A stretch of DNA of 64,000 nucleotides from IMG/VR virus record IMGVR_UViG_3300028840_006907, positions 224,001 to 288,000 of that record, one strand, 5' to 3'. The notes under the pieces are model-generated. The model saw nothing but the letters and a program-made list of their open reading frames with translations, was not told the DNA's origin and searched no databases. Shown one piece after another: positions 1,144 to 54,028 of this stretch. This stretch comes from a virus. Each line of letters begins with the position of its first letter. Position 1 is the first letter of the stretch. The position numbers were made by a program, and so were the translations under genes.

Positions 1144-3036
1144 ATGAGTCTTTCTGAACTTTGTACAAATTATATAGGTTCTAATAGGTTAAAAGATGAG
1201 ACTGAGCGAAATATCATAGAATTTGCTGAGGCTCAATGGGGCCTAGGTATGGGTACTATGCCTGGTATCCCGCCTTTATTTCCTGTACAAAAGTTCATTT
1301 TTAAGACTTATTATAATATTCCTCTTGATAACGGTGATGACCGAATAATAATTGTTAAAGACAAGTTTAATGAGAAGGTCAGATACCGATTTAATGAGAA
1401 AGAATATTTAAATTTCTTGTTCAATGAAGGTCGTATAAATATCAAGGAGGTCACTGGAGACCCTAAAGATTCCAGAACTGACCTGGTATTAGTCATAGGA
1501 AGAAGAGGTCTAAAAACAAGTAGTATAGCGGTTTTAGTAAGTTTTGAAACTTACAAACTTCTTAAAAAAGTAAGTCCTCATGAGTATTATGGTATTATGC
1601 CTGATGATGAGATTCGGGTATCATGTGTTGCTACCAATAAAGAACAGGCTGGTGAACTCTTTCGAAGAATCAGTGGCCATCTAGAGCGTTCTGAATATTT
1701 TAAAAAATACCGTGAAAAACCCACATTGAGTTACATGAAATTAAGTACTCAACGTGATATTGAGGAGTACGGTCCTGGTAATAGATCCTCACTTCGTATT
1801 GTTGCCTCTCCCTGTACCGGTAGAGGACTTAGAAGTTATAATAATATCATAGCTGTTTTAGATGAGATGGCTCATTTCTTTGAGTCTGATACATCCACAG
1901 ATAAGTCAGATAAAGTGATTTATGATTCTGTTACTCCTTCTGTTGCAAAATTTGTCACTCCTGAAGGTGATCTTCATGGGAGAGTTATAAGTATATCATC
2001 TCCAAATGATCGATCAGGTAAATTCTATGAACTCTATGAGCGTTCCATGGAAGCTGATTGTGACAATATATTAATGATTCAGGCTCCTACCTGGGAAGTA
2101 GACTATACTCTTTCACCTAAATACCTAAGAGCGAAATATCTAGAAAATGCTGTTTCATATATGAGCGAGTTTGGTGCTGAGTTCTCTGATAGAGTGTCTG
2201 CTTGGATAGATAATGAGCAAATGTTAAGGATTAACATTATTCCAGGTTTGAAGTTAAAAAAGATAAGCTATGAGCGTACGCCTCATTTTATGGGTATTGA
2301 CGTTGGTCTTAAACAGGATGGAACTGCTATTGCAATTTGTCATATAGTAAAAGAAATGATTGGTGATATTGAAAGAAATTTGATTGAATTGGACTGCATA
2401 GATGCACGTTATGCAAAAGATGAGGATAAAGAATATTTCCATCCGGATGAAATAGCGGATTGGATAGCTACTTATAATGAGAAGTTTTACATTGTAAAAG
2501 GTATTATGGACCAATATTATGGTTTAGCTATGATACCTAAACTTCATGAAAAAGGTATAAAACAGATTAATGCAGCCCATTTCAGTCGGGATTTTAATTC
2601 AAAAGTATATCAAAATTTAATGTCGAAAATGCTCGATGTCTCATTAAGAATTCCAGAAGGTGATGAACATTTAGTTGATGGTAAAAAAACAAAGGATCTT
2701 GATTTAGTTACAGAAATGTTAAAGTTACGGGCTGTTACTCATTCAAAATATTTAATTACAGTAAAGGCTCCAGATGTAAAGAATGCTCATGATGATAGAT
2801 CTGATGCTTTTGCTCGTGCAGTCTATTTGGCTACTGAATATATGGCTTCTGGAGGTGGTATAGTAAAAAATAATCGTATTGAGAGTACTGGTAAAAACGC
2901 TTCTTATCGCCAGTATTATATGAAACAAAAAAGAAATGCGATGTATACAATGCGGCCTTCATCTGCCCTTCAAATGGAGATTTCAAGAAACAGACATTTT
3001 AATTCATTAATGAGCCAGCTCGGAACGAGGAGGTAA
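1144..3036 (+). CDS. terL: terminase large subunit
   Basis: 630 aa. Deviant Walker A VIGRRGLKTS, Walker B IIAVLDEMAHF, and an ISISSPN coupling-type motif. C-terminal RNaseH-like nuclease acidic motifs MGIDVGLKQDGTAIAICH and AHDDRSDAFARAVYL. Confidence 0.9.
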   Translation: MSLSELCTNYIGSNRLKDETERNIIEFAEAQWGLGMGTMPGIPPLFPVQKFIFKTYYNIPLDNGDDRIIIVKDKFNEKVRYRFNEKEYLNFLFNEGRINIKEVTGDPKDSRTDLVLVIGRRGLKTSSIAVLVSFETYKLLKKVSPHEYYGIMPDDEIRVSCVATNKEQAGELFRRISGHLERSEYFKKYREKPTLSYMKLSTQRDIEEYGPGNRSSLRIVASPCTGRGLRSYNNIIAVLDEMAHFFESDTSTDKSDKVIYDSVTPSVAKFVTPEGDLHGRVISISSPNDRSGKFYELYERSMEADCDNILMIQAPTWEVDYTLSPKYLRAKYLENAVSYMSEFGAEFSDRVSAWIDNEQMLRINIIPGLKLKKISYERTPHFMGIDVGLKQDGTAIAICHIVKEMIGDIERNLIELDCIDARYAKDEDKEYFHPDEIADWIATYNEKFYIVKGIMDQYYGLAMIPKLHEKGIKQINAAHFSRDFNSKVYQNLMSKMLDVSLRIPEGDEHLVDGKKTKDLDLVTEMLKLRAVTHSKYLITVKAPDVKNAHDDRSDAFARAVYLATEYMASGGGIVKNNRIESTGKNASYRQYYMKQKRNAMYTMRPSSALQMEISRNRHFNSLMSQLGTRR

Positions 3037-3039
3037 AAA

Positions 3040-6000
3040 GTGTCGGAAGTTTATCAGGGTGATTATGCCCCTAATTTATATAATGAGGAAAAGCGTTATT
3101 ACTTATTTCAAGCACAACAGTTGACAAATCTAACTGATGCTGAACTTCGTGATTTACATAATATATCGAACACGTATGTCCGTCGTACAGTGCAAGCTCA
3201 AATTGGTGATTGTGCAATACAAGATGGTTATAAAATTGCTGAGAATACTTCGGATAAGTCTAACAATTTTCTTATAACAGGAGGAAGTGGTACTCTTGAT
3301 GATCCAGGGATGTATTATCTTAAAGGATATCGATTATTCCTTTTAGGTGATATAGCCTATAAAGATCAAACAGATACAGGTACTATTACCGATGACGGTT
3401 ATACTAAAACTATATTACCTGCTCTGACAACGCCTACTGGGGTCACCTCCACTTTAAATAGCCTTTCTTTAAGTAATCCCACTCTTATCTGTTGTGGTGA
3501 TACGAGTGCTATTGCTAACTCTTCTGATTGGGGTCGAAATTGGGTTGATAGAAATGCTATGACATCCCAAAATCTAAATGGTTCTTCTTTAGGAGACGCC
3601 TCAGTCGGTTATGCAGTTGGTAATGTGGGAGCTGTTCTTCGTACAACTGATAGTGGAAATAGTTGGATAAATATCCGAACAAGTTTACCAACTCTACCAA
3701 CAAATTATCAAAATGTTAATTTCTTTGATGCTTATTTTGTGAACTCTTCTATCGGATGGATCACGGGTCAAAGTGGTGCCATATTAAAAACAATAAATGA
3801 TGGGACTAGTTGGACTGTACAGGGATCTGGTGTCACTACTTCAGATTTAAGTGGTGTTCATGGGACTGGATTAACTGATGTGTGGGCTGTCGGTAGTAGT
3901 GGTATGGTGGTAAAAACGACTGATGGTACAACCTGGTCTCAACAAGCTAGTGGAACTCTTTTTAATTTATCAAGAGTACATGCTATTAATACATTGGTCG
4001 CTTATGCTGTTGGTAATAGCGGTACTATAATAAAAACAACGAATGGTGGTACATCTTGGTCTGCACTTACTTCTGATACTACAGAAAATCTTCGTGATGT
4101 TCATTTCACGGATTTAAATAATGGTTGGGCTGTTGGTGATAATGGTACGATTACCCGAACAGATGATGCAGGTTCAACCTGGGATTCTTCTACTATTGCC
4201 AGTGTCGATTTAAGAGCTGTTACTTTTTATGATACCACAGGATTTACTGCTGGTGGAAGTGGTGAGATTTACAGAACTCTTGATAATACAAATTGGGTGA
4301 AATATCGTACTGATTATGTTTACATTGATTTCCATCTAGCTGAGGTTTCAGGTGATGCCACCTCAGGTAGTGAATACATAGATACAAGTTTAGTGGATGC
4401 GACTGTAGGTTATCCAAGTGCCAATAGATTGAGGGTGGTCTCTGATGTAAAAGTGTCTGAAGGGTGGCCAGCTCCAGCCGATTACACCAATACTGATGCT
4501 ACCCTTCAGCATTATATCGCTCCTCTTGCGTCAATAGAGCGTTCGGTGGGTACAAGTGATATAACTTCAGCTAACATCACAGATTTAAGAACTGTTGTTC
4601 GTACTATTGGTGAGATTGATGCTGCCCTTAAAGACGGAAGTATTGGTACTTCTGCAATAGCTGATGGAGCTATTACCCCTGATAAACTTGATAGTACTGG
4701 CGATTATACAATGGGATCACTCAGTATCTTGGGAGATTCTTCTATTGCTGGTGATTTAACTATAGGCGGTATATTAGTTGTTAGTGATTATAGAACTAGC
4801 ACTATCATGGATAATCTTGTGGTACGGGGATCTGCTCAATTAGGTGATTCAACAGCTCCATATGAGGATAGTGTTAATATTTATGGTAATATTACTCAAG
4901 TATTAGATTCAACTAAAATCGCTTATGATATACAAACATCTTCAACAACTGATGCTTCTCCAATAATTAAAATTGTTTCTGATAGTACAGGTAGTGTATG
5001 GCATGTAGAAAGTAAATCTCAAACGACATCGAGTCTTTTTGATGCTACTACACAGAATATGGGGTATGATTTCCATTTAAATCATTTAGGATATGAAGGT
5101 GGCTTATTTAAATTAAGGGATGATGCAAGTAACCATACCATTACTATATCTAAGACAGCTCCAGGATTTAGAGGGTCTGTTTTAGATGTTACAAGTAATA
5201 GCAATGACCCAACAATAAATATCGTAAACAGAGCTTTATCTGATTCAACAAGTTTAAGTATTGACCAGACTCATGGGACCATGATTACTTTGAATACGTT
5301 GGGTGATGCTTCTGGTATCGATATTTATTCACAAGGCTCTGGAAGAGACCTACATATAGATCATTCAGGTACTTTAGGAATAGCTGTAGATATTACTAGT
5401 TCCAGTGCACAGGTTGCAATGAATCTTGTAAATCAGATGGGACCTGCTGTAGTAATAACTCAGAATGGTGATGATGAAGCTCTGTTGGTTTTAAATAAAG
5501 ATTCTACAACCTTAGGAAGAGCTTTAGAGATTAACCATAGAGGTAGTGATGTTGGATTAGGTGTTTATAATACTGGTACTGGAATGGGTCAGCTAATTTC
5601 ACATGTAGGTGATTCTACTCATCCTGCATTAGATATTTATGTAGCAGGGAATGAAAAAGGTCCAGCTCTTCGTATAAATAAGGCAAATGATGAAACTGGT
5701 GAAGGTATAAGAGTATGGAATCAAGGTTTTAGCGAATCCTTAAGATTAATTCAGGATAGAACCGATTCCTCAGCTACAGTACTTTTAATTGAAAGCCAGA
5801 GTATTGGTTATGATGTTAGCTCTAGTAATTGGAATATAGATAGCTCAGGTAATATTTATACCGCTGGAAGTATTACTTCTGATTCTACTGCTACTGTAAC
5901 AAGTTCTAAATTTGCTTTTGATAGTACTTATTATATGACTTCTACAGGGATGTATCTTGATAACAGTGGCTATGATTCCTCTAATCCTGCTGTAGCTGGT

Positions 6001-9000
6001 AGGGCGTTTATAGAATCAGGTTTTTTAAGAGTCAGTGACGGTACTACAGCTTCTCCAATACCTTCATGGGGTGCTACTGGTGCCACAGGAAATACTGGGG
6101 CTACAGGATCCACAGGGGCTACAGGATCAGGGACTCAAGGAACAACAGGAGTTCAAGGATCTGCCGGGGCTACTGGAGCTACTGGACCGGCTGGAACTGG
6201 TTCTACAGGAGTCCAAGGTGTCCAGGGTGAAACCGGTATTCAGGGTCTCCAAGGTGATACGGGTGTTAGTTTAGGAGCAACAGGCTTGCAAGGTATCACA
6301 GGTCTCAGGGGATTCACGGGACTGCAGGGTCAAACCGGTGTTGCTGGGGAAACCGGAGTTCAGGGAGTGCAGGGACAAACCGGAGCTTTTGGTGGCCCTC
6401 CAGGAGAAACTGGCGTGCAAGGTGTCCAAGGAAACACTGGAGTACAAGGAACTACTGGAGTTCAAGGATCAACCGGAGTTCAAGGAATTCAAGGTCAGAC
6501 CGGAATTCAGGGAATCCAAGGAAATACTGGAGTACAAGGAATTCAAGGTAATACTGGAGTACAAGGTCAAACCGGAGTAAGTGGAGAAACTGGAGTACAA
6601 GGAACTACTGGAGTTCAGGGTATTCAAGGTCAAACTGGTATAGCAGGTCAGACAGGTATAGCAGGTCAAACCGGAGTTCAAGGAATCCAGGGAATTCAAG
6701 GTCAAACAGGTGCCCAGGGTTTAACAGGAGTAGCAGGTGAGACTGGAGTCCAAGGATCTCAGGGAAATACCGGAGTTCAAGGTATCCAAGGGCATACGGG
6801 AGCTGGGATACAAGGTACTACTGGTGTTCAAGGTTTACAAGGTCAGACTGGCTCTCAAGGTACTACTGGAATTCAGGGAGAAACTGGTGTAGGTATCCAA
6901 GGTCAGACGGGTGTTGCCGGTGTTGATGGCCAAACCGGAATTCAAGGAATCCAAGGAACCACAGGAGTTCAAGGTGAAACAGGAACTCAAGGAATTCAAG
7001 GAAATACCGGAATTCAAGGAACTCAAGGAAGCACAGGAGTTCAAGGAGAAACTGGAGTTGGTGCTCAAGGAACTACTGGAGTGCAAGGAATACAAGGAAA
7101 TACTGGAGTTCAGGGAACAACCGGAGTTCAGGGAATTCAAGGTCAAACCGGTGTTCAGGGAACACAAGGAGAAACAGGTTATATAGATTCTTCCAGTGTT
7201 AATCATAACGCTCTTCTTAATTTAACTGTTGGTGATGACCATACTCAGTATGCTTTTTTAGCTGGTCGTACTGGTGGGCAAACTATAAATGGTGGTGATG
7301 CTGCTTCAGACGTTTTAACTCTTCAAAGTACTACTGATACTACAAAAGGGAACATCATTCTTAATCCTATTAGTGGGGATGTCCCTGGTAAAGTTGGTAT
7401 AGGAGTAACATCTCCGATTTATCAATTACATGTTGGAGAGATTTTAGATGGCGGTACTGTAGGTATATGTATAAATAACCAGTATACTGCAAATGGATCA
7501 GTTGATGAAACTGCTAGTTTAATATATAGATTTGGTAGGCCACTCAGTCCTCAATATAGAGTAGCAGGTCAAGTATTAGTAGGTAAGGAACAGGATTGGT
7601 GGGATTATAATAGTACTGACGCTTATATGGCTTTTCATACTACTCGTGATACAATTTCACGTGAACAGATGAGAATTAATGCTCAAGGTTATGTTGGAAT
7701 AGGTACAACAAATCCCCAAGCTAAGCTTCATGTAACGACATTTGCTCAATTTGATGAAGGCTTTTCAACTAATATCGGTATAGGTGTTACCGCTCCTCAG
7801 GCACAGTTACATGTCGGAGAGAGTGTAACTGATGGAGATGTTTCAATAATTGTGAATAACTGGTCTTGGACTGGAGGGTCTGTAGATGAGACAGCTAGTT
7901 TACAATTCCGTTTTGGGCCTCCTCCAAGTAATTATTCTGCTGGTAAAATTTCTGCTCATAAAACTTTAGATTATATGAGTTTCGATAATAGAGACTCTTA
8001 TATGACTTTTAGTGTTGTAAATAATCAATCTGAAGTTGAGCGTATGAGGATTTTAAATGATGGAAAGGTAGGTATTGGTACAACTGATCCTCAAGAAAGA
8101 CTGCATGTAATTGATAGGGGTCAATTTGATATGGGGCTACAACAACCTATTGGTATAGGTGTAACGGCTCCATTAGCTGAATTACATGTTGGTAATAGTA
8201 CTAATGGTGGTGATGTAGGCATTATTATTAATAACCAATACAATACTACTGGATCAGTTGATGAAACAGCAAGTTTAATTTATAGATTCGGTACAGTAGG
8301 AAGTGCAAATTATCGAGTAGCTGCCAGAATTTGTGCTCATAAAGAATTAGACTGGCAATCTTTTGATAATGTCGATTCAGCTTTAGCTTTTAGGACTACT
8401 CGAAATCAATCTGAAAATGAAAGAATGAGAATAACTAGTGAAGGTGATGTAGGAATTGGTACTGTCACACCTTCAGAAAAATTACATGTAGAAGGTAATA
8501 TTTATACTACTAATGGTTTTCTTGCTGGTGGGAACATCCAAATTGAAGGGGACTTTTTAGGAGGGACTGATGGTAATTCTAATTTAGGCTCTACTTCAAG
8601 AAGATTTAATAACCTTTATATGGCTTCTTCGATAAATTATAATTCTGATCTAACCTTTGATTGTACGGGTACCCATGTAACCCTTACAACTGGTGGTAAC
8701 GTAGGTATAGGAACTACAAATCCCCAAGGATTATTTCATGTTTCTGATGATACCAATGGTGGTGATGTAGGTATTGTTGTTAGTAATCGCTATATTGGTG
8801 GTGGGTCAGTTGATGAAACAGCTAGTATGATTTATCGTTTTGGCCATCCGTTAGGAGTAGCTAATAAAGTTGCAGCCAGAATAAGTGCCCATAAAGAATT
8901 AGATTGGGCAAACTCTAATAATACTGATGCTGCTTTGATTTTCTGGACTACTCGTGATGCTGTTGAACGACAACAGATGAGAATTGATAGCAATGGTTAC

Positions 9001-10053
9001 TTAGGAATCGGTATAACTAATCCTCAGGAAATATTACATGTAGATGGTAATATCGTAGGATCATCTGGTTCTAATTTAGGGTCTGCTGCATTAAGATTTT
9101 CTAATCTTTATTTGGCTTCTTCTATAAACTATAATTCTGATCTTAATTTTGATTCAACAGGAACACATGTCACTTTTACAACAGGTGGTAATGTAGGTAT
9201 AGGTACTACAGATCCGCAAGCATTATTACATGTCTTTGATAGTACTAACGGTGGTGATGTTGAAGTTATAATTACTAATGACTATTATAGTGTTAGTTCG
9301 TTGGATGAAACTACCAGTATAACTTTTCAAAATAGAGGTCACGATGGTAATAGGTATACTGCAAGTAGAATTCTTTGTGGAAAAGAAGGAGATTTTAGTA
9401 TCTCTGATAGAAAAGGTTATCTAGCTTTCCATACAGTTAATCAAAGTTCATTTGAAAGAATGCGAATTACTTATGATGGTAATGTCGGTATAGATACTAC
9501 GGCACCTTTAGATAAGCTTTCTGTCGAAGGTCAAATGTCTGTGACTCTTGCAGGTGATCGAAAATTTAAAGTAGATAGTACAGGACAAATTTATTCCGAT
9601 GCAGGTACATCAATATTTACTCCTGCTGACCTTGCTGAATGGTCAAAGGTAGAGGGGTATCTGGAAGAATATGAGTTAGGTATGGTAGTACAACAATCCT
9701 GTGTAGATTTAACCGTTAAGCTAGCTGATAGCCCTTCTGAGAGAGTATATGGTGTGGTTACAAACCGTGCCACATTTTTGGGAAGTCTTACTGGTATTGA
9801 TAAGAAAATATTAAAAGAATTAACGGATAGTGAGATAGAAGATGAGTTCAATGCCAAAAAAATAGCAATGGTAGGGCATGTTCAAGTTCTGGTAAAGGGT
9901 ACCGTTAATATAGGTCAGTCATTGACTCTTTCTGATAAGAAAGGAATAGCACGGGGAGCTACAACTTTTGAAGAAAAAGCTCTGGCTCTTGGTATTGCAA
10001 GAGAAAGTTATGATTCAACCGATATAGGACTTATTGAGGCGAGATTATTATAA
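3040..10053 (+). CDS. giant virion fibre protein (BNR/Asp-box propeller + collagen-like tract + GIGT..LHV fibre repeats + C-terminal capping-type module)
   Basis: GTG start 6 nt after AGGAGG; 2,337 aa. About nt 3460-4300 carries repeated Asp-box-like motifs (TTDSGNSW, TINDGTSW, TTDGTTW, TTNGGTSW, TDDAGSTW). About nt 6070-7175 is uninterrupted G-X-Y (GVQGETGIQGLQG...). Nt 7390-9520 has ten copies of [VI]GIGxTxPxxxLHV spaced by conserved GGDVGIxxNN...GSVDETASLxYRFG...MRI units. The C-terminus reads ADLAEWSKVEG...GMVV...YGVVT...VGHVQVLVKG, resembling fibre C-terminal autoprocessing or chaperone modules. Confidence 0.85.
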   Translation: MSEVYQGDYAPNLYNEEKRYYLFQAQQLTNLTDAELRDLHNISNTYVRRTVQAQIGDCAIQDGYKIAENTSDKSNNFLITGGSGTLDDPGMYYLKGYRLFLLGDIAYKDQTDTGTITDDGYTKTILPALTTPTGVTSTLNSLSLSNPTLICCGDTSAIANSSDWGRNWVDRNAMTSQNLNGSSLGDASVGYAVGNVGAVLRTTDSGNSWINIRTSLPTLPTNYQNVNFFDAYFVNSSIGWITGQSGAILKTINDGTSWTVQGSGVTTSDLSGVHGTGLTDVWAVGSSGMVVKTTDGTTWSQQASGTLFNLSRVHAINTLVAYAVGNSGTIIKTTNGGTSWSALTSDTTENLRDVHFTDLNNGWAVGDNGTITRTDDAGSTWDSSTIASVDLRAVTFYDTTGFTAGGSGEIYRTLDNTNWVKYRTDYVYIDFHLAEVSGDATSGSEYIDTSLVDATVGYPSANRLRVVSDVKVSEGWPAPADYTNTDATLQHYIAPLASIERSVGTSDITSANITDLRTVVRTIGEIDAALKDGSIGTSAIADGAITPDKLDSTGDYTMGSLSILGDSSIAGDLTIGGILVVSDYRTSTIMDNLVVRGSAQLGDSTAPYEDSVNIYGNITQVLDSTKIAYDIQTSSTTDASPIIKIVSDSTGSVWHVESKSQTTSSLFDATTQNMGYDFHLNHLGYEGGLFKLRDDASNHTITISKTAPGFRGSVLDVTSNSNDPTINIVNRALSDSTSLSIDQTHGTMITLNTLGDASGIDIYSQGSGRDLHIDHSGTLGIAVDITSSSAQVAMNLVNQMGPAVVITQNGDDEALLVLNKDSTTLGRALEINHRGSDVGLGVYNTGTGMGQLISHVGDSTHPALDIYVAGNEKGPALRINKANDETGEGIRVWNQGFSESLRLIQDRTDSSATVLLIESQSIGYDVSSSNWNIDSSGNIYTAGSITSDSTATVTSSKFAFDSTYYMTSTGMYLDNSGYDSSNPAVAGRAFIESGFLRVSDGTTASPIPSWGATGATGNTGATGSTGATGSGTQGTTGVQGSAGATGATGPAGTGSTGVQGVQGETGIQGLQGDTGVSLGATGLQGITGLRGFTGLQGQTGVAGETGVQGVQGQTGAFGGPPGETGVQGVQGNTGVQGTTGVQGSTGVQGIQGQTGIQGIQGNTGVQGIQGNTGVQGQTGVSGETGVQGTTGVQGIQGQTGIAGQTGIAGQTGVQGIQGIQGQTGAQGLTGVAGETGVQGSQGNTGVQGIQGHTGAGIQGTTGVQGLQGQTGSQGTTGIQGETGVGIQGQTGVAGVDGQTGIQGIQGTTGVQGETGTQGIQGNTGIQGTQGSTGVQGETGVGAQGTTGVQGIQGNTGVQGTTGVQGIQGQTGVQGTQGETGYIDSSSVNHNALLNLTVGDDHTQYAFLAGRTGGQTINGGDAASDVLTLQSTTDTTKGNIILNPISGDVPGKVGIGVTSPIYQLHVGEILDGGTVGICINNQYTANGSVDETASLIYRFGRPLSPQYRVAGQVLVGKEQDWWDYNSTDAYMAFHTTRDTISREQMRINAQGYVGIGTTNPQAKLHVTTFAQFDEGFSTNIGIGVTAPQAQLHVGESVTDGDVSIIVNNWSWTGGSVDETASLQFRFGPPPSNYSAGKISAHKTLDYMSFDNRDSYMTFSVVNNQSEVERMRILNDGKVGIGTTDPQERLHVIDRGQFDMGLQQPIGIGVTAPLAELHVGNSTNGGDVGIIINNQYNTTGSVDETASLIYRFGTVGSANYRVAARICAHKELDWQSFDNVDSALAFRTTRNQSENERMRITSEGDVGIGTVTPSEKLHVEGNIYTTNGFLAGGNIQIEGDFLGGTDGNSNLGSTSRRFNNLYMASSINYNSDLTFDCTGTHVTLTTGGNVGIGTTNPQGLFHVSDDTNGGDVGIVVSNRYIGGGSVDETASMIYRFGHPLGVANKVAARISAHKELDWANSNNTDAALIFWTTRDAVERQQMRIDSNGYLGIGITNPQEILHVDGNIVGSSGSNLGSAALRFSNLYLASSINYNSDLNFDSTGTHVTFTTGGNVGIGTTDPQALLHVFDSTNGGDVEVIITNDYYSVSSLDETTSITFQNRGHDGNRYTASRILCGKEGDFSISDRKGYLAFHTVNQSSFERMRITYDGNVGIDTTAPLDKLSVEGQMSVTLAGDRKFKVDSTGQIYSDAGTSIFTPADLAEWSKVEGYLEEYELGMVVQQSCVDLTVKLADSPSERVYGVVTNRATFLGSLTGIDKKILKELTDSEIEDEFNAKKIAMVGHVQVLVKGTVNIGQSLTLSDKKGIARGATTFEEKALALGIARESYDSTDIGLIEARLL
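6070..7175 (+). repeat. collagen-like (G-X-Y)n coding repeat inside the 2,337-aa fibre gene
   Basis: 9-bp-periodic GGN-NNN-NNN coding with degenerate ggagttcaaggaa-type units. It creates many shadow ORFs on both strands. Confidence 0.9.
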
Positions 10054-10275: not shown

Positions 10276-12027
10276 TTATGCCTTGTGAAATCGAAAACTA
10301 TTATTAAATAAATAACTAGGTTTTGACTCAACTGATCTTCCCATGTATGTTCTGGTTTTTGAGTAGCTTATATTTAAACATTTCTGAGCCCTTGTGCATG
10401 CTACGTAAAATAATCTCTCTTCCTCTTTTTTATCTACAGCAAAACTATGAGGCCATACTCCTTCTTCTACACCTACAACTAGGACTGTATTAAATTCAAG
10501 ACCTTTACTGGCATGAGCCGTTAATAACTTAACCCCATGTCCGGTATCTTCTTCCAGAAATGTACTTGCTAAAACCAGGTCCTCTATGGTTCTAAATTCT
10601 CTGATGATTTCTAAAAATGAAGTCAGCATTGTACGGTCACTATCTTTTTTAATAGTAGTTCTATAATCTGTTTTATATAAGATAGTCTCAACAGCCTCTG
10701 AAGGAGTCATGCCCTTTATTTCATTTAAGATATTTATAAGTCCTCTTATACGGGGCATTTCATAAGCCATAGTTTCTAGATAAGACCAGCCTTCTCGAAG
10801 TAAAATTTCTTTTTTCTTTGCTCCGAATCCACGAGGGGGTACATTTACGATTCGGTTTAAACTTTCTAAATCATCTCTATTCGTACTGGCTTTGAGAAAA
10901 CTCATTAAATCTTTGGGAACTCTACGCTTATAATAAGGAAGGGCACCAACAACTTTATATGGTATGTGTTTACTTGCAAAAGCTCTTTCAAAGAATAAGG
11001 ATCTTGCATTTACGCGAAACAGTATTGCGGTATTTTCGTAATCGTTGGCTCTTATAAGGGCATTGGATATTTTCTCTGCCTCGTCTTCCTGACTATTAAA
11101 TCCGGTGAAAGATATTGATCCTTGGAAAGGGTTTTTAGCAACCATCTGATTACCGTATTGAATGTATTGATTGGCATGTTTTATGATCTCTGGAGAACAT
11201 CTGTAGTTGAAACTTAAGTGACATACAGTCGGTTTATGTAATTCTATAAAATGTTTTATGTTCTCAGGATGGGCACCCCTAAATTGGTAAATGGACTGAT
11301 TAAAATCAGCCACTACAAACAATGTCTTTGAATTTTTTGTGTATAGTTTATTTATAATGTCATATTGAATTAAAGATGTATCTTGAAATTCGTCTACTAA
11401 TAGATGAGGCCATTTTTTTGAGTAAAAATCAGCGCAATCTTTATGTCCTAAACAGTCATTGGCATAAATGAGTAGGTCATCGAAATCACATGCATTATTT
11501 TTTAGAAGAATCTCTTGGTAAGTTTTATATACAAGTAAAAAATTTCCTTCATTCAGTTCTGATGTAAACTGCGAAAGTCTGAATGATTTCCTGACATTAT
11601 CGGACCCCATTGATTTGATATGGCTAATAGCCAAGACATATGTTTTGGGTTCTCCGGGCAATTCCCGAGATTTAATGATTGTTTTTACAATTGATAACTG
11701 ATCACCGTCATCATATATACTAAAATTAGGTTTTATTGGTAAATGCCGTGTAAAATTTCTGATTATCCCTACACATAAACTGTGAATTGTGCTGACTTGC
11801 ATTTTTCCAATAGAGTCACAATGTAACTTTAATCGCTCTTTCATTTCATTGGCTGCTTTATTCGTAAAAGTAATAGCACATATATTATCTGGAGAAATAC
11901 CTTGTTCCATAAGCCTTAAAATCTTGGCTATAAGACATCGGGTTTTTCCTGATCCTGCCGAGGCATTAACCATTGTAGGTGATGCAGCTTCAACGGCTCT
12001 GGTTTGTTCTGTATCTAATGATATCAT
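10276..12027 (-). CDS. UvrD/PcrA/Rep-type superfamily 1 DNA helicase
   Basis: 583 aa. Walker A NASAGSGKTRCL, Walker B/motif II LLVDEFQDTS, motif V-VI LLTAHASKGLEFNTVLVVG, and LFYVACTRAQKCL. Start overlaps the upstream stop (TAATG). Confidence 0.9.
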   Translation of the reverse strand: MISLDTEQTRAVEAASPTMVNASAGSGKTRCLIAKILRLMEQGISPDNICAITFTNKAANEMKERLKLHCDSIGKMQVSTIHSLCVGIIRNFTRHLPIKPNFSIYDDGDQLSIVKTIIKSRELPGEPKTYVLAISHIKSMGSDNVRKSFRLSQFTSELNEGNFLLVYKTYQEILLKNNACDFDDLLIYANDCLGHKDCADFYSKKWPHLLVDEFQDTSLIQYDIINKLYTKNSKTLFVVADFNQSIYQFRGAHPENIKHFIELHKPTVCHLSFNYRCSPEIIKHANQYIQYGNQMVAKNPFQGSISFTGFNSQEDEAEKISNALIRANDYENTAILFRVNARSLFFERAFASKHIPYKVVGALPYYKRRVPKDLMSFLKASTNRDDLESLNRIVNVPPRGFGAKKKEILLREGWSYLETMAYEMPRIRGLINILNEIKGMTPSEAVETILYKTDYRTTIKKDSDRTMLTSFLEIIREFRTIEDLVLASTFLEEDTGHGVKLLTAHASKGLEFNTVLVVGVEEGVWPHSFAVDKKEEERLFYVACTRAQKCLNISYSKTRTYMGRSVESKPSYLFNNSFRFHKA

Positions 12028-12338
12028 TAATTATAATTCCAAAATCTTGTTTTCATACTTATAACTGAAGCACCCGCTACAATGTTAACGAGTAATCCAT
12101 AATTATAAGTATGGTTAATGTTATGTTTCTTTTTTACATCGTAAAGTTTTTTTAATGTTAATACTATTTCAGCTACTTCTAATAATAATGGAACTTCTTT
12201 TATTTCCTCTGAAGACTTGACTACTGGTTTATATAAATCGCTAAAAATCTTTTTAAAATAAACTTCTACCTCTCCTTTATCCGTCTTGAAAAAAATTCGA
12301 TACCTCCCCTTACCATTCTTTTTTAGTACCTCCATCAT
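12027..12338 (-). CDS. hypothetical protein
   Basis: 103-aa ORF translationally coupled to the helicase gene (TAATG overlap). No motif recognised. Confidence 0.55.
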   Translation of the reverse strand: MMEVLKKNGKGRYRIFFKTDKGEVEVYFKKIFSDLYKPVVKSSEEIKEVPLLLEVAEIVLTLKKLYDVKKKHNINHTYNYGLLVNIVAGASVISMKTRFWNYN

Positions 12339-12420
12339 AAGTCACTGCTAGTTTGGCTTTAATTAGCATTTTACCTAAATCTTTTCCGTCAACAAAGAAA
12401 TAAGTCATGAATTTAGTCAT
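12310..12420 (-). CDS. possible 36-aa coupling ORF (not in the ORF track)
   Basis: Its ATG overlaps the TGA of the upstream gene (ATGA at 12417-12420). Reads MTKFMTYFFVDGKDLGKMLIKAKLAVTYDGGTKKEW and its stop overlaps the next gene's start region. Supported by position only. Confidence 0.25.
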   Translation of the reverse strand: MTKFMTYFFVDGKDLGKMLIKAKLAVTYDGGTKKEW

Positions 12421-12638
12421 GTTTTATTCTTATTTTTTGAATTGCTCTTTTCATCGATTATATATTTTTTAATAGTATATACCTTTATTATTCCGAGTTT
12501 TTTAAATATATAATCTTGAAATTCTTTTTCTAATTTATCGAAATCATAACTTACTAATTCTAAAGCCCATTTTACCCTGAAATCTTTTTCAGCTAATTGA
12601 ATCAATTTTATTTGAAATTCTGTTTGTGTTAATTCCAT
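12417..12638 (-). CDS. hypothetical protein
   Basis: 73-aa ORF in the minus-strand operon. No motif recognised. Confidence 0.5.
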   Translation of the reverse strand: MELTQTEFQIKLIQLAEKDFRVKWALELVSYDFDKLEKEFQDYIFKKLGIIKVYTIKKYIIDEKSNSKNKNKT

Positions 12639-12658
12639 AAATTTTAAGAAAAGTCCTT

Positions 12659-12934
12659 CTATATTTTAGTTAATGGCTCGTCGTATTTTTCAAGAGTTTC
12701 ATCTCTTTTAACCAATTTGCAGTTTACAAATTCAGGCATTCTCGGGTCTTTATTAAATGTATCCACTAATTCCTGAGCATCATCTTTAAATAGACAACAT
12801 GCTTCGTGTGGGTCTTTCACGAAATGTGTCCATGAGTCATTCTCTGAACTGCGAATTTTTTTCATAGCATAAAAAGTACCATTCGGGTGTTGGATTAAAT
12901 AATCCTGGCTAGTATCTGTGTAAAAATCGTTCAT
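12659..12934 (-). CDS. hypothetical protein
   Basis: 91-aa ORF with AAGGCGG 7 nt upstream. First gene behind the conserved extended -10 motif at 12979-12999. Confidence 0.6.
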   Translation of the reverse strand: MNDFYTDTSQDYLIQHPNGTFYAMKKIRSSENDSWTHFVKDPHEACCLFKDDAQELVDTFNKDPRMPEFVNCKLVKRDETLEKYDEPLTKI

Positions 12935-12978
12935 AATATACCGCCTTTTGAATGAGTGTGAATAAGTTAATAGTGAGT

Positions 12979-12999
12979 CCTTTATAAATATTATACCAG
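12979..12999 (-). promoter_or_regulatory. conserved extended -10 promoter motif, family 2 (CTGGTATAATATTTATARAGG)
   Basis: The minus strand reads CTGGTATAATATTTATAAAGG (TGnTATAAT). A 20/21-identical copy lies at 21974-21994. Both sit upstream of minus-strand genes. Confidence 0.6.
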
Positions 13000-13089
13000 T
13001 CTACCCTTGAAACTCTCCCAAAAAAATTTTAATAAAAAATGTGATGGTTTGTAATTCGTTGAGAAGTATAAAATTATAAAACAAAAAAA

Positions 13090-13428
13090 TTAGTCTAAAA
13101 ACTTCTCAATATTTTCTATTGAATTAATGATTTTACCATTTTCTTGTATGAAATAAAATCTTTTTCCACATTTTATACAACTTATTACAGCCATGTTGGG
13201 AACAACTTCTTTAAAATGAAATTGATTATTGATTTGATCTATTACTGATTGCATATTTGAGAAGATGGTATTTCTTTGATATAATGTGAAGACATATTTA
13301 CAGTGAGGGCAGATAATTCGATGAGGATCAACAATTTTTTCCTTATGTTTTTTTATAAGTTCTATGATAAAACTTATAATAATGTAAATACTGAGAAAAG
13401 TCATGGGAAAAATTAATAATTCTTTCAT
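13090..13428 (-). CDS. small membrane-anchored zinc-ribbon protein
   Basis: 112 aa. N-terminal hydrophobic helix (LLIFPMTFLSIYIIISFII), then ICPHCKY...CIKCGK (two CxxC pairs). Start is 1 nt after the upstream stop. Confidence 0.55.
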   Translation of the reverse strand: MKELLIFPMTFLSIYIIISFIIELIKKHKEKIVDPHRIICPHCKYVFTLYQRNTIFSNMQSVIDQINNQFHFKEVVPNMAVISCIKCGKRFYFIQENGKIINSIENIEKFLD

Positions 13429-13429
13429 T

Positions 13430-13813
13430 CTAAAGATAATCCTCTATTCGTTTAGCCTTTTCATTCAGATATAATAGGACTTTTTCATCATCTTTGATTT
13501 TACCTTTATCATCGATATATGAAGTCATCTCAATAGATTTGATAGGTTTAACAGTCCCATGATTGATTTCAATTTTTCTATGTACTCCTTTTACTAACAA
13601 GTCAATTTCTTCTTTCTCATCTGAGTCCCAGTGGTACTCTGGGAATAAATAATTAATCTGATTCTTACCATAACCTTTAAATCGACTCAGGATGAAACTG
13701 TTATCAAATTTGTTAAATATGCCTAAAGTCGAATTTCTTGCCATTATAAGATACAGGCAATTGTGTATACATTTATTTAATGGGACATATGATTTAAATT
13801 TCTCTATGCTCAT
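13430..13813 (-). CDS. hypothetical protein
   Basis: 127-aa ORF directly downstream of the E1-like gene in the same operon. No motif recognised. Confidence 0.55.
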   Translation of the reverse strand: MSIEKFKSYVPLNKCIHNCLYLIMARNSTLGIFNKFDNSFILSRFKGYGKNQINYLFPEYHWDSDEKEEIDLLVKGVHRKIEINHGTVKPIKSIEMTSYIDDKGKIKDDEKVLLYLNEKAKRIEDYL

Positions 13814-13828
13814 TGAGTAATATATTTT

Positions 13829-17923: not shown

Positions 17924-18063
17924 AGTTCTGCACTCTAACTTTTGATGCTTACATAGAGAAAATAGCTCAGTTGGTCAGAGCGCGAGATTTAGGTTCTTGA
18001 AGTCTTCGGTTCAATTCCGAATTTTCTTACCATAAAATTAGCACCTTCAACTTGTGCAGAACT
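17924..18063 (+). ncRNA. structured RNA unit 1: shared closing module enclosing a complete tRNA
   Basis: Perfect 10-bp terminal helix AGTTCTGCAC (17924-33) / GTGCAGAACT (18054-63). Family module just inside it: 5' TCTAACTTTTGATGCTTACA and 3' GCACCTTCAACTT. The cargo is the tRNA at 17956-18032. Confidence 0.6.
17956..18032 (+). tRNA. tRNA, anticodon UAG (Leu by the standard table), class-I shape, CCA encoded
   Basis: Hand-folded cloverleaf. Acceptor GAGAAAA/TTTTCTT (G1-U72). D-arm GCTC-AGTTGGTCA-GAGC. Anticodon arm CGAGA-TTTAGGT-TCTTG (U33, anticodon TAG at 17990-92, G37). 5-nt variable loop AAGTC. T-arm TTCGG-TTCAATT-CCGAA, A73, then CCA. Confidence 0.85.
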
Positions 18064-19015: not shown

Positions 19016-21643
19016 ATGACATGTAAAATTTGTAAGAGTAATCTTTCTTATACTTTTGATAAATTTCCAGCTTATAAGTTCTGTCCTTGTTGTAACCTTT
19101 ATTTTCAAGAAGAATTTCCACCAAAGATATTTGAAGGTCCTGATGAGAATAACGGGCATGGTCCCGGTACAGGTCATTTAATGTCTGAGGATGAAAAGGA
19201 AATAAATAAAAATTTCGCTAATGTTCTCTATGATATGTTTATTCCTCGAACTCTTCTAGATATAGGTTGTAAATACCCCTATTTTATTAGTGTGTTAAAA
19301 GATAAAATAGATGTATTAGGAATTGATCCTATTTCAGAGATCTTGAAATATGGAGAAGAATTGGGTGTCTCTGTAATTCGTGATGATTTTGAAGATATGA
19401 ATATTACTCCTTTAAAAAATAAATTCGATTTAATAACTTTGATACATACTTTCGAACATTTTTATAGCCCAATAGAGACCATGAAAAAGATAATCGAATG
19501 TCTTACTCATAGAGGAGTGCTTTTAATAAGAATTCCAAACATAGATATTGAAGGTATAGAAAGAGATTTTACTGATCATCATGTTCAAATCCATCCCTTT
19601 ATATATTCAACACAAGCAATGTATCGAATCGCTCAAAAATTTGATTGTGAAATTTTTAGGGTCGATGATATTATTGGATATGGCCAGAGCGATTTTTATT
19701 TAAGGAAGAAAAGGGACCATCTTTCTTTATCGGTTTGTATGATTGTAAAAGATGAGGAAAAGAATGTTTCTGATTGTTTGGAGAGTATAAAAGATGTAGC
19801 TGATGAAATCATAGTTGTGGATACCGGATCTATAGATAATACCAAAGAAATAGTATCCAAATATACAACAAAGATATATGACTTTAAATGGATTGATGAC
19901 TTTTCTGCTGCTAGAAATCACTCTTTAAGTAAGGCAACGGGTGACTTTATTTTATGGCTTGATGCTGATGATATTGTAGAAAATCCAGAAAAGATTAATG
20001 AAATATTAAAAAATGATGATGCTAAGATATTTAATTTTAATATTAAATATGGAAATGATGTCTTTAGTCAGGCTAGACTATTTAGGAATTTTTATAATAT
20101 AAAATTTTCTGGTAGAGTTCATGAATATCCTGTAATCGATAATTTATATATAAAAGATACTGAAGTTAATGTAATTCATAAAACCGAAAAACATTCAACA
20201 GAAAACCGTTCTGATAGAAATCTCCGTCTCCTTAAAAAAGAATACGAAGATAATCCGAACAATTCCCGGACACTTTTTTACCTGGCAAGTGCTTATAAAG
20301 AACTTACTCGTTGGGATGAAGCTATAGATTTTTATCGAAAATATTTAACTATTTCTATCTGGAAAGATGAGAGATGGATGGCTCAAAAGAATATTGGATG
20401 TATTCTTTCCTGGAATAGAAAATATGAAGAAGCCATTGAAGAATTGAAGAAGGCTATTGAAATAGATGATCGATGGGCTGAGTCATATTATTATATAGCT
20501 GAGTGTTATTTCTATTTAAAAAACCCTCAAGAATGTATAAACTGGTCTTTAAAAGCTATTGAGAAAAAGATGCCCGAATCACCTCTTTGGAAAGAGATCC
20601 CAATTTATAATGACGCACCATACCGTTATCTCTTTGCTTCTTATGGTTCTTTAGGTGATTTTGAGAAAGCATTGCATTATTGTAAGATAGCATCAGAAAA
20701 AGTTCCTGAGGATGAATGGCTTAAGGAAAGAGTCACTTATTTTGAGAATGCTACAAAAGGAGTTCCTGTTGTAGTCGAATGTAATCGGTGGGGGGCTTTG
20801 GGTGATTGTTTAATGACAACTGCATCTTTACGTGCCATTAAGCATAAGATTCCGGGTTGTTTTATAAGATATGTCACCCATCCTAGTATGTTCCCGATCC
20901 TTGAAGGGAATAAGTTTATAGATGAACTTGTATCAGAATCTAAATCTGAGAACTCAGAAAAGGTTTATTTCTCATATCCTGACAGTAAATCTCCTATTAA
21001 AGATGAAGGTTATCCTAATAAGCCTTTGAATCGCCATTTAGTACGTATATTCGCAGAATGTGCTGGTTTAAAAGAATTTGATAATCTAAAGATGGAGTGT
21101 ACTCTTACAAAAGATGAGGAGAAATCAGGTCAGTCATTGAGATCTCGATTTAAGAAATATGTGACTCTTCATATCCATTCGGGTTGGTCTGAGTATAAGG
21201 ATTGGTATAATGATCGTTGGGAGACTGTTGTAGATGAGTTATTTAAAAGAGGTTACGTGGTTGTTCAGCTAGGCCATAAAGATGAGGGTCTCTTAGTTGG
21301 TACTGTGGATTATAGAGGCCATACTATAAAAGAAGCTATCTCTGCAATAAAATATGCTGATATTCATTTAGGAGTGGATTCATTTACAAACCATGCCTCG
21401 GCTACTGTGGGGACTCCTGCAGTTATTTTATTTGGGTCTACTTCTCCAACCGGTTCCGGGTATGATCAGAATATAAACCTTTATAAAGATTTGAAATGTC
21501 AGCCTTGTTATAAAGAATATGCATGGTCTAAGGATAATAAAGGAAAATGTCCTTATAATAAACTATGTATGGATCAGATCCTGGTTCAGGAAGTATTAGA
21601 CGGTTTTATGAGATTAGAAAAAAAATTATTTATTGATGGATAA
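19016..21643 (+). CDS. multidomain glycan-modifying enzyme (Zn-ribbon, SAM-methyltransferase-like, GT2, TPR, GT9/heptosyltransferase-like)
   Basis: 875 aa. CKICKS...CPCCN. Methyltransferase motif I-like LLDIGCKYPYF. GT2 motifs LSVCMIVKDEEKNV...IIVVDTGSIDNT and WLDADD. TPR-like LFYLASAYKELTRWDEAIDFYRKYL. GT9-like NRWGALGDCLMTTASLRAIKHKIPG and GVDSFTNHAS. Confidence 0.75.
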   Translation: MTCKICKSNLSYTFDKFPAYKFCPCCNLYFQEEFPPKIFEGPDENNGHGPGTGHLMSEDEKEINKNFANVLYDMFIPRTLLDIGCKYPYFISVLKDKIDVLGIDPISEILKYGEELGVSVIRDDFEDMNITPLKNKFDLITLIHTFEHFYSPIETMKKIIECLTHRGVLLIRIPNIDIEGIERDFTDHHVQIHPFIYSTQAMYRIAQKFDCEIFRVDDIIGYGQSDFYLRKKRDHLSLSVCMIVKDEEKNVSDCLESIKDVADEIIVVDTGSIDNTKEIVSKYTTKIYDFKWIDDFSAARNHSLSKATGDFILWLDADDIVENPEKINEILKNDDAKIFNFNIKYGNDVFSQARLFRNFYNIKFSGRVHEYPVIDNLYIKDTEVNVIHKTEKHSTENRSDRNLRLLKKEYEDNPNNSRTLFYLASAYKELTRWDEAIDFYRKYLTISIWKDERWMAQKNIGCILSWNRKYEEAIEELKKAIEIDDRWAESYYYIAECYFYLKNPQECINWSLKAIEKKMPESPLWKEIPIYNDAPYRYLFASYGSLGDFEKALHYCKIASEKVPEDEWLKERVTYFENATKGVPVVVECNRWGALGDCLMTTASLRAIKHKIPGCFIRYVTHPSMFPILEGNKFIDELVSESKSENSEKVYFSYPDSKSPIKDEGYPNKPLNRHLVRIFAECAGLKEFDNLKMECTLTKDEEKSGQSLRSRFKKYVTLHIHSGWSEYKDWYNDRWETVVDELFKRGYVVVQLGHKDEGLLVGTVDYRGHTIKEAISAIKYADIHLGVDSFTNHASATVGTPAVILFGSTSPTGSGYDQNINLYKDLKCQPCYKEYAWSKDNKGKCPYNKLCMDQILVQEVLDGFMRLEKKLFIDG

Positions 21644-42782: not shown

Positions 42783-43141
42783 TAACTGAAATTGATGATG
42801 ATAGTAAAGACATAAAGATAAAATTAGGAAATTTATTTGAAAAATATGAAAATCTTTATCGGGAAGGGAATAGACAGTTTAGAACAGAGAGAATAGCTTC
42901 TGCTGGGTCAATGGATGGTCTGGAAGAATTTCGTCGTTTGATGCTTATTGTAAAAAGAAATAAGGATGTAGTGGCCTCGCTAATGCGGGGTATAGCTAAT
43001 TTTAGGTCTATTTCAAATTTTAAGTTTGTAGAAGAGGAAGTAGAAATTTCAAAACCGAAACCAAAGAAAACAAAGAAAGCTACTCCTGAAAAAGTGATCA
43101 TACCTATACCAATAGTAGCGGAGGAATTTAATGGCGAATAA
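42761..43141 (+). CDS. hypothetical protein
   Basis: 126-aa ORF overlapping the portal start by 11 nt. Has a Lys-rich C-terminal segment. Confidence 0.6.
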   Translation: MPDFNKLITEIDDDSKDIKIKLGNLFEKYENLYREGNRQFRTERIASAGSMDGLEEFRRLMLIVKRNKDVVASLMRGIANFRSISNFKFVEEEVEISKPKPKKTKKATPEKVIIPIPIVAEEFNGE

Positions 43142-52564: not shown

Positions 52565-53437
52565 ATGGCTGAAATTAGCAATCAAGTAAAACAAGAAATT
52601 ATTGCTGAGTATATTAAAACTGCCGGTGGACGTGCGAAACTCGCTGCGTCAATGACTCAGCCTTTACGTCTTAGGAGAGACTACACCAGTGTAGGTCGTA
52701 AGACTTTCTTGGTAGAACAGCTCCCTGACGGTGCATTACCAATTTATGACAAAGATCCTAATGTCACAGCATATGTGATTGGTGAAGAAGGTGCCAACAT
52801 TTTGGCTATCACCAAACCTCGCCGTGTCATTTTTCCTTTGTTTGAAATTGCATCCAATCCGGAAATTCCGTTAACTCAAATCAAAGAACGTCGTTTCGAT
52901 CTCATCGAACGTGCTCAAGACCTTGCTAAATCAGAAATTCAGGCTGAAGAAGACACACGTGTTTTTGAAGTTCTGGATGCTGTAGCAACAAATGGTTTTG
53001 ATAACATCGGTGCAACGAATGCAGATATCCCTGCAACTGCTCCTCTTACACCTTCAGACCTCGCTGATGCTTTTGCACTAGTAGAGCGCCATGATCTGCG
53101 TGTAGCAAGAGTATTTGCCAATGCACTGGATTACAGTGACATTCGTAAGTGGGGACGTGATGTTCTTGATATCGAGAGTCAGGCAACATTACTTAAAACT
53201 GGTCTTATGGCAACCGTTTGGGGAGCCCAGATCATAGTTTCAAGAAAAGTTCCTGTAGGATACATCTATGTATGTGCAGAACCTGAATTCTTTGGCCGGA
53301 TACCTGTCCGTACAGAGCTTACAGTTCTCTCTGCTGATGATCCACGTAACCGTACAATCGGATTTTCATGTTTTGAAAATCTTGGTATTGGTTGCCACAA
53401 TCCTCTCGGCTTGGATCGTGTCGTACTTTCTCGATAA
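52565..53437 (+). CDS. major capsid protein (HK97-fold type)
   Basis: 290 aa with GGGAGGTGA RBS. Biased, GC-richer codon usage and a strong terminator just downstream. Position after the scaffold, and size and sequence style typical of short HK97/encapsulin-like shell proteins (no delta domain). Confidence 0.7.
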   Translation: MAEISNQVKQEIIAEYIKTAGGRAKLAASMTQPLRLRRDYTSVGRKTFLVEQLPDGALPIYDKDPNVTAYVIGEEGANILAITKPRRVIFPLFEIASNPEIPLTQIKERRFDLIERAQDLAKSEIQAEEDTRVFEVLDAVATNGFDNIGATNADIPATAPLTPSDLADAFALVERHDLRVARVFANALDYSDIRKWGRDVLDIESQATLLKTGLMATVWGAQIIVSRKVPVGYIYVCAEPEFFGRIPVRTELTVLSADDPRNRTIGFSCFENLGIGCHNPLGLDRVVLSR

Positions 53438-53892: not shown

Positions 53893-54028
53893 GCTAAAAA
53901 AATTTGTAATTATTCTTCATTTAAAACGTTTTGATTTAAAAGAAGTTATCATATTTTATGGTAACTTTTTTTCATTTGTTTAAAAAATTTTGCTGTTCGT
54001 TTCCCTTCTAAACCTTGTATTAATATGT

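Follow-up and report, generated by a model that had tools for sequence, protein, structure and literature searches.

The described proteins closest to the locus analysed here each resemble a different part of it. In the structures of Caulton et al. 2024 (PMC10769870), V-G-x-G/N-x-x-x-P-x-x-x-L motifs occur in pairs, as the capping loops at both ends of beta-helix domains that intertwine into trimers. The same capping-loop motif occurs in S74-type phage spikes, and the Bdellovibrio MAT fibres often end in adhesive beta-sandwich tips rather than in S74 (Caulton et al. 2024, PMC10769870). Ycf48/HCF136 (PF14870; structures 2xbg and 5ojr) is a stand-alone lumenal lipoprotein of ~330 amino acids (aa) with a seven-bladed Asp-box propeller of ~290 aa, and gp12, the pre-neck appendage of phage phi29 (Peptidase_G2; 3SUC), carries its C-terminal domain behind a trimeric beta-helix. 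We analysed a window of 64,000 nucleotides (nt), the whole stretch from position 224,001 to 288,000 of IMG/VR virus record IMGVR_UViG_3300028840_006907, and followed up one gene in it, at nt 3040..10053 (Table 1), which resembles all of these proteins at once. The gene probably encodes a mosaic, homotrimeric, receptor-binding virion fibre of an uncultured ~389-kb phage, put together from two recombined lineages and folded by an autochaperone.

A first-pass annotation, made from the sequence alone, had called the product a giant fibre protein, and this was borne out: the gene has a 2337-aa open reading frame (ORF), and the motifs listed by the annotation are present far beyond chance. All parts of the protein are of known kinds, and the mix is unusual without being a new kind of system. 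The novelty lies in how these parts are combined, in the insertion of an entire propeller into a loop and in a G2-like terminal module that is invisible to Pfam. Our literature searches found no description of Ycf48/BNR propellers in collagen-bearing phage fibres, nor of the whole architecture. The findings overturn nothing in the current understanding of phage fibres.

Ancestry of the two halves and the inserted propeller

A HMMER scan and an indexed search returned at least 24 metagenomic homologues collinear with aa 1-1008 (45-78% identity), on contigs of up to 260 kb. Collagen of variable length (26-470 aa) follows in nineteen of the 24; the remaining five, in which no such tract is seen, may be truncated by the end of their contig. 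The tips of relatives on long contigs are short and diverse (roughly 25-520 aa), and the closest relative (P0277, 78% identity) ends 37 aa after the collagen, in a gene that is complete on its contig. The GIG modules and the D-x-A-E tail described below were found in none of the 24 proximal-half homologues, and the distal half was found attached to other N-termini in P0001 and P0002. Because the 24 proximal-half relatives carry other tips, sequence comparison identifies the fibre as a recombinant of two fibre lineages, one proximal and one distal. It offers a clean, datable case of huge phages recombining whole modules into receptor-binding fibres. The domain order had been annotated as unusual, a claim that does not hold within the protein's own family: at least 24 homologues carry the series of N-terminal domain, propeller, shaft and collagen (the last with the five exceptions just given), and BNR/Ycf48-like propellers are already present in cyanophage baseplate proteins.

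A related 260-kb contig (L010) encodes, at 11809-13827, a 672-aa protein immediately after a shorter homologue of the fibre (1265 aa, with propeller and collagen). This protein has a weak pectate-lyase/RHGA-like beta-helix match and may be a separately encoded distal spike that replaces the fused distal half.

Comparison with propeller-less relatives defined the N-terminal domain. Its first half is 34-44% identical to the N-termini of P0002, P0006, P0009 and P0042 and its second half 40-45% identical to the same four proteins, with R423, D425, Y428, D430, E435, N462 and R463 invariant. These four homologues match aa 1-135 and 423-~525 contiguously and lack the propeller, so that ALTTPxxP runs straight into RTDxVY.DF.AEVS, while 24 other homologues carry the propeller at exactly the ALTTP|RTD junction. 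Since the domain is uninterrupted in four homologues and split at the same junction in 24, the alignments indicate that the propeller is a whole-domain insertion into one loop of a ~250-aa N-terminal domain. Since the termini of a closed propeller lie next to each other, such a domain would lend itself to insertion in a loop. The annotated succession of a ~140-aa head-proximal region and a serial propeller thus gives way to one ~250-aa domain split by the insert. The ~570-aa beta-rich region placed behind the propeller was correct only in its larger part, because its first ~110 aa (aa 423-~533) belong to the N-terminal domain as its second half and only the remainder is the beta-rich shaft. 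The ~250-aa domain is presumably the virion-attachment domain, and its pLDDT (AlphaFold2 predicted local distance difference test) was 76-88 for aa 50-115 in a model that covered aa 1-1010 and was built from a 29-sequence alignment. It provides a clear example of a complete propeller inserted in a loop of an attachment domain.

The propeller itself contains the Asp-box motif [ST]x[DN]xGxxW in five strict copies and two copies one residue shorter, at aa 161, 202, 251, 293, 333, 374 and 413; in shuffled sequences the strict pattern averaged 0.1 copies and never exceeded 2. Seven motifs at a spacing of 39-49 aa indicate seven blades, which settles the annotated "six to seven" at seven. The region matched Pfam PSII_BNR (PF14870) with 65.7 bits against a gathering cut-off of 27 (E 5.6e-18) and, by sequence, the Ycf48 structures in the PDB (E 4e-15). 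The pLDDT was >90 for aa ~135-425. A Foldseek search against the PDB returned Ycf48 in all of the top 12 matches (TM-score 0.69-0.76, ~20% identity, best E 1e-18), with a root-mean-square deviation of 3.3-4.4 Å in 11 of them and 7.6 Å in one; the TM-score was 0.74-0.76 to 2xbg and 5ojr. These results confirm the annotated propeller fold, and both sequence and model place the propeller with the Ycf48 type and not with the sialidase type, which the annotation had offered as an alternative.

The shaft is ~45-55% conserved in the 24 homologues and weakly periodic (autocorrelation peak at a lag of 25 aa), with a pLDDT of 65-85 for aa ~640-910. It gave no match in Pfam, PHROG or NCBIfam, and tblastn of aa 423-1010 against the deposited phages gave none either. 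The G-X-Y tract behind it, annotated as ~370 aa, was confirmed as a Pfam Collagen match (E 2e-47) and comprises 8 runs of G-X-Y, 120 triplets in all, separated by 7 short interruptions. It is poor in Pro, with mainly V/I at X and T/Q at Y. A collagen triple helix needs three chains, and the tract therefore requires a trimer. The adaptor that follows shares 53% identity with a segment (aa 239-303) of the Bdellovibrionales 'tail fiber domain-containing protein' P0011 and had no real match in PDB, Pfam, PHROG and NCBIfam searches.

A second giant fibre gene in the window encodes a collagen-dominated protein of 3078 aa. A common N- or C-terminal domain of the two fibres was considered and rejected, as tblastn matches between them lay in the collagen only. 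The collagen-coding DNA of this gene is 63-71% similar to that of the first, so the two collagen genes form long imperfect repeats and are possible recombination substrates. Two large ORFs have beta-1,4-glycosyltransferase-like domains (phrog_13126), one of them fused to a methyltransferase-like domain; the other lies just upstream of the 3078-aa collagen protein, and fibre glycosylation is therefore a possibility.

Capping-loop modules and the C-terminal module

In the distal half, the motif [VIL]G[IV][GD]x[TVN]xPx3-4[LF][HS]V occurred ten times between aa 1452 and 2162 and not once in 2000 shuffles. Ten repeats separating units of ~105-145 aa had been annotated. The ten motifs were confirmed, whereas alignment of the region resolved five modules of ~118 aa, not ten units, with the motifs as their proximal and distal ends. 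The modules are pairwise 42-59% identical, and each has one set of GGDVGI, GSVDETASL.YRFG and ERMRI blocks. They are joined by two 9-aa linkers and by two copies of a 46-66-aa spacer, an element also present in P0002. A phmmer search against the PDB matched Bd2133 (8ond) at E 3.3e-10 over three stretches, as well as 8oml, 8ol4 and 8ojn, and the GxVGIGTxxPxxxLHV loops aligned residue for residue with these Bdellovibrio MAT fibre structures. More than 2600 homologues were found, many with a terminal Peptidase_S74, and the relatives include annotated pelagiphage and cyanophage tail fibres. The repeats thus match a known family, that of MAT and phage tail fibres, but not one with another function, and the fibre reading stands. 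The MAT-type capping-loop module, solved only in Bdellovibrio, is extended by this locus to a collagen-bearing phage fibre.

Synechococcus phage S-SM2 shows a related arrangement: in its SSM2_040 (L009), named 'pre-neck appendage protein', a canonical ADYAEYFE G2 domain is preceded, at a distance of ~100 aa, by a GIG-like capping loop (GSVGINETSPSATVDI). Cultured aquatic phages therefore already combine a beta-helix module with a G2 chaperone.

The C-terminal module is 47-78% identical to the C-termini of P0001, P0002, six contig-end fragments and five IMG/VR loci, several of them on contigs of 330-466 kb; so far, the module has been found mostly on contigs of huge-phage size. It was C-terminal in every protein examined, and the protein was a long fibre where the full gene was known (this window and P0002). 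P-A-D-x-A-E-W, R, K, GH and S are invariant, and P-A-D-L/x-A-E-W was present in 8 of 8 homologues. By hhalign, the module was compared with a set of aligned phi29-gp12-type C-terminal domains that we assembled from eight phages. The results showed a collinear match over 148-151 columns with a probability of 85% (8 query sequences) or 88% (13), at E 3-6e-6. The score was 42-45, against 13.4±1.9 for column shuffles and 17.0±3.5 for block shuffles (maximum 24.7). As the profiles are shallow (Neff 2-3), we count this as moderate evidence, and the signal appeared only with the eight-sequence G2 alignment, the probability with the single phi29 sequence being 1%. In the alignment, D2197-L-A-E2200 falls on D692-F-A-E695 of phi29 (DFAEYF), and residue 691, which directly precedes D692 (DFAEYFE), is the last one of mature phi29 gp12. 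From these two observations, cleavage is predicted at PA2196|D2197, with the D2197 codon at nt 9628-9630 within PA|DLAEW; in phi29, the cleavage is reportedly ATP-dependent. On sequence evidence, homology to the G2-type autochaperones is likely, and actual autocleavage somewhat less so.

The annotated self-cleaving or chaperone end is accordingly plausible through the phi29-type profile match, but not as the common S74 type. Peptidase_S74 (PF13884) gave no match at E<=10, and the only nearby S-D lies in YSDAGTS, without Lys; S74 identity was rejected for want of a Pfam match and of SDxxxK. A tblastn search with the module against the deposited phages found no match, and PDB searches with the N-terminal domain, adaptor and C-terminal module gave chance-level hits only (MS2 coat, APC, UmuD). 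We also considered and rejected a separately encoded chaperone in P0121-P0126 (172-187 aa): of these, P0122 and P0125 were checked, and both proved to be gene calls cut short by the end of a contig. On another contig (L015), an IS605 OrfB/TnpB (Cas12f-like) gene at 1059-2138 lies ~0.5 kb downstream of a fibre with the same C-terminal module. A divergent G2-like autochaperone would be missed by domain libraries, and adding a profile for it would improve the annotation of fibres in huge-phage metagenomes.

Proposed assembly and weighing of alternatives

In the assembly that we propose, the N-terminal ~250-aa domain would plug the fibre into the virion, and the three propellers of the trimer would project sideways near the base. 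The beta-rich shaft would lead into the 372-residue collagen triple helix, and the distal half would consist of five triple beta-helix modules, each closed by two GIG..P...LHV loops. The three C-terminal modules may associate first and set the register, after which the beta-helices and the collagen helix would zip up from C to N. Self-cleavage in front of D2197, in the conserved D-x-A-E, would then release the chaperone and leave beta-helix module 5 exposed as the distal tip, which binds the receptor. The fibre would be ~150 nm long, because the collagen contributes ~106 nm (computed at 0.286 nm per residue), the five modules would add ~6 nm each by analogy with Bd3182, and the shaft adds the rest.

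The function of the propeller allows several explanations. Asp-box propellers include sialidases and GH74 xyloglucanases, and GH74 enzymes, together with generic seven-bladed WD40 proteins, ranked directly behind Ycf48 in the fold search, so the propeller might be an enzyme, either a sialidase or a different glycoside hydrolase, with a host surface glycan as its substrate, which would make the fibre a depolymerase. We consider this very unlikely. Sialidase propellers are six-bladed and this one has seven blades; the F/YRIP motif of sialidases is absent, as neither [FY]R[IV]P nor R[IVL]P was found in aa 136-425, and no sialidase was among the top 50 structural matches in the PDB. GH74 catalysis requires two tandem propellers that form a cleft, and here there is a single one. 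Across 25 family members, the conserved positions are nearly all structural G/W, no conserved acidic pair was seen, and the only family-conserved Arg of the region (R412/R423) lies at the domain boundary. The sialidase identity was rejected on blade number, motif and fold, no evidence was found for glycan cleavage, one of the annotated options, and the propeller is probably non-catalytic, judging from conservation and model. A photosynthetic origin, in which a host gene for a photosystem II assembly function was fused as an auxiliary metabolic function to a structural gene, would fit the cyanobacterial Ycf48 proteins as the best sequence and fold matches and the Joint Genome Institute (JGI) annotation 'photosystem II stability/assembly factor-like'. 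It is nevertheless extremely improbable and effectively refuted by the architecture, the domain sitting mid-chain within a collagen fibre. The region scored 81.5 bits against the cut-off of 326 of the Ycf48 equivalog (NCBIfam NF010237), identity to Ycf48 is only ~20%, and PF14870 propellers occur on tens of thousands of non-photosynthetic bacterial surface proteins, for example proteins sorted by the type IX secretion system, in Bacteroidota and Ignavibacteria. Nothing in the fibre propeller suggests a photosynthetic role. We give more weight, though still well short of an even chance, to a propeller that does not bind the host but serves as a structural docking hub for another protein of the virion (an adjacent fibre, the capsid or the baseplate), a role also conceivable for the propeller domains of cyanophage baseplate-wedge proteins, or to a protein that is a head or neck fibre and not a tail fibre. 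Some ~150 nm separate the propeller, which lies within the virion-proximal domain, from the distal tip, and its conservation of ~45-50% in the family contrasts with variable tips. Among deposited phage proteins, a similar propeller was seen only in 'baseplate wedge initiator' proteins, and the gene stands beside the terminase, outside any recognisable tail module. However, the four propeller-less related fibres imply that the N-terminal domain functions without a propeller, and a gene with a weak PhageMin_Tail match, ~7 kb away from one of them (P0002), hints at a tail association. An accessory binding module for a host-surface ligand or another virion component is the most likely role of the propeller.

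At the other end of the protein, the C-terminal module might stay uncleaved as a permanent distal tip, a trimerisation knob and/or a receptor-binding domain, which we think rather unlikely. Its counterparts would then be MAT fibre tips of the non-S74 kind or the 'fin' at the C-terminus of the P22 tailspike, which stays uncleaved. None of the curated peptidase models matches the module, and the confident part of its AlphaFold2 model is weakly like stable trimeric decoration proteins (the phi29 gp8.5 base, lambda gpD-like). Its 47-78% identity across differing shafts, however, is above that usual for receptor-binding tips, the invariant D-x-A-E falls on the phi29 cleavage/catalytic motif, and shuffles do not reproduce the profile match. 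The reading of a receptor-binding fibre folded by an autochaperone, which we prefer, has to carry several points that speak against it. The trimeric beta-helix folding of the five modules would follow from homology; the N-terminal domain belongs to no family recognisable in Pfam, PHROG, NCBIfam or PDB searches; and the conserved positions of the propeller, being structural, give no pointer to a ligand. For the C-terminal module, the Pfam, PHROG, NCBIfam and PDB sequence profiles gave no match, and Peptidase_G2 (PF11962) gave none at E<=10 with the module or with seven homologues. Its AlphaFold2 model, with a pLDDT of 51, was too poor for fold matches to carry much meaning, and Foldseek found nothing at E<=0.001 with it; the weak fold matches (E ~0.01) were to phi29 gp8.5 and lambda gpD-like trimeric decoration proteins and not to gp12. 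Pairwise BLASTP to cyanophage G2 domains was marginal (E 0.018-0.04).

A further reading, put forward tentatively and in our view doubtful, is a two-site adhesin whose propellers bind a host-surface ligand independently of the distal tip, with the C-terminal module representing an unrecognised, Pfam-invisible subfamily of G2-type autoproteolytic chaperones restricted to huge-phage fibres. If this is true, the long collagen stalk would make first contact and the proximal propellers would then lock the particle onto the cell.

Genomic setting and comparison with known systems

The fibre protein is the product of a single unbroken ORF (stop codon at 10051-10053), and the JGI gene call on the source contig Ga0180437_10000019 (388,651 bp) gives the identical 2337-aa product. 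The gene lies directly downstream of a divergent large terminase gene: its GTG start is 6 nt past a GGAGG that overlaps the end of the terminase gene and 3 nt past the terminase stop (3034-3036). Among deposited sequences, the best relatives of the terminase come from LR745208, an uncultured phage of 485 kb, at 35% identity and from Tunturi_5, a Tunturiibacter phage of 309 kb, at 27%; Microcystis phages come next (23%), and the closest of these, with their 485-kb and 309-kb genomes, indicate that the fibre gene belongs to an uncultured huge phage. The order of a 178-aa ORF, terminase and fibre is kept on related contigs where the context was examined. A megablast search of the fibre gene against 50,697 deposited phages found no match.

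Elsewhere in the window, a single tRNA-Leu gene stands between leftward replication-type and rightward structural genes. The portal-like protein is unusually long and has weak endonuclease-like and terminase-like PHROG matches at aa ~486-553 only; this extra segment may be an inserted element or an intein. The ORF matching a major head protein has only 290 aa, with HNH-endonuclease-like ORFs nearby, and homing endonucleases may interrupt or flank the structural genes of the window.

Table 1. Positions of the fibre gene, its parts and other features within the window
Feature	Position (nt)	Strand	Residues (aa)	Remarks
Large terminase	1144-3036	+		Very divergent
Ribosome-binding site GGAGG and GTG start	3029-3033 and 3040-3042	+		Sequence read directly, ORF list
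Whole fibre gene	3040..10053	+	2337 aa	
N-terminal domain, first half	3040..3444	+	1-135	
Seven-bladed Ycf48-like BNR/Asp-box propeller	3445..4305	+	136-422	
N-terminal domain, second half	4306..4638	+	423-~533	Starts with motif RTDYVYIDFHLAEVS
Beta-rich shaft	4639..6069	+	~534-1010	Family-specific
Collagen-like G-X-Y tract	6070..7185	+	1011-1382	372 residues; PF01391
Adaptor, collagen to beta-helix modules	7186..7380	+	1383-1447	NHNALLNLTVGDDHTQY...
Predicted beta-helix module 1	7381..7734	+	1448-1565	Two capping loops
Predicted beta-helix module 2	7762..8109	+	1575-1690	
Predicted beta-helix module 3	8137..8490	+	1700-1817	Best PDB alignment to Bd2133 (8ond)
Spacer copy A	8491..8688	+	1818-1883	LGSTSRRFNNLYMASSINYNSDLTFDCTGTHVTLT
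Predicted beta-helix module 4	8689..9042	+	1884-2001	
Spacer copy B	9043..9180	+	2002-2047	
Predicted beta-helix module 5	9181..9525	+	2048-2162	Most divergent; distal loop degenerate (VGIDTTAPLDKLSV)
C-terminal module	9526..10050	+	2163-2337	ADLAEW...GHVQVLVKG
tRNA-Leu	17956-18032	+		Anticodon TAG
Glycosyltransferase-like ORF	19016-21643	+		Upstream of the second giant fibre gene
Second giant fibre gene	22251-31487	+	3078 aa	Collagen-dominated
Portal-like protein	43131-46484	+	1117 aa	
Major-head/HNH-endonuclease-like region	52565-53437, 53990-55063, 60608-61783	+		
Glycosyltransferase-like ORF	61866-63947	+		Fused to methyltransferase-like domain

Compared with described proteins, the fibre shares its Pro-poor G-X-Y stalk with the collagen-like phage tail fibres of PHROGs 6320, 5073 and 1806 ('collagen like minor tail'), but only the collagen matches and the flanking domains are unrelated. 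Ycf48 is the best sequence and fold match of the propeller, which here is not a free-standing protein but a domain inserted in a 2337-aa fibre. A similar propeller within large structural proteins is found in cyanophages S-SSM7 and S-CAM9 ('baseplate wedge initiator') and S-CBWM1 ('BNR repeat domain protein'); these carriers, however, are gp7-like baseplate wedges and not collagen fibres, and their identity is 29-36% over about half of the propeller.

The C-terminal module follows predicted beta-helix modules, much as the gp12 domain follows a beta-helix, and its blocks are collinear with those of phi29 gp12: [S/A]|D-[FYL]-A-E-[YW], G.(V)V,.iGVV(S/T)..A.f.G and (V/A)(G/M)(L/V)GQ/H(V/I).V.V.g.V..G. 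It differs from gp12 in being ~50 residues shorter in mid-domain and invisible to the Pfam model, with W in place of Y/F after the Glu and His in place of Gln in the GHVQ block. In S74-type phage fibres and tailspikes and in the Bdellovibrio MAT fibres (Bd2133, Bd1334, Bd3182), modules of ~100-130 aa are likewise bounded by V-G-x-G-x-x-x-P-x-x-x-L-H-V; compared with the S74-type fibres, the protein has no S74 SDxxxK domain and its terminal domain is G2-like. The signal peptide and the conserved, beta-rich ~130-aa N-domain of the MAT fibres appear to be lacking here, although no direct comparison of the N-domain was made, and the N-terminus is instead a phage-fibre domain with an inserted propeller, followed by the 372-aa collagen helix. 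The MAT fibres follow the same modular logic as this fibre, a constant shaft combined with a swappable tip (PMC10769870).

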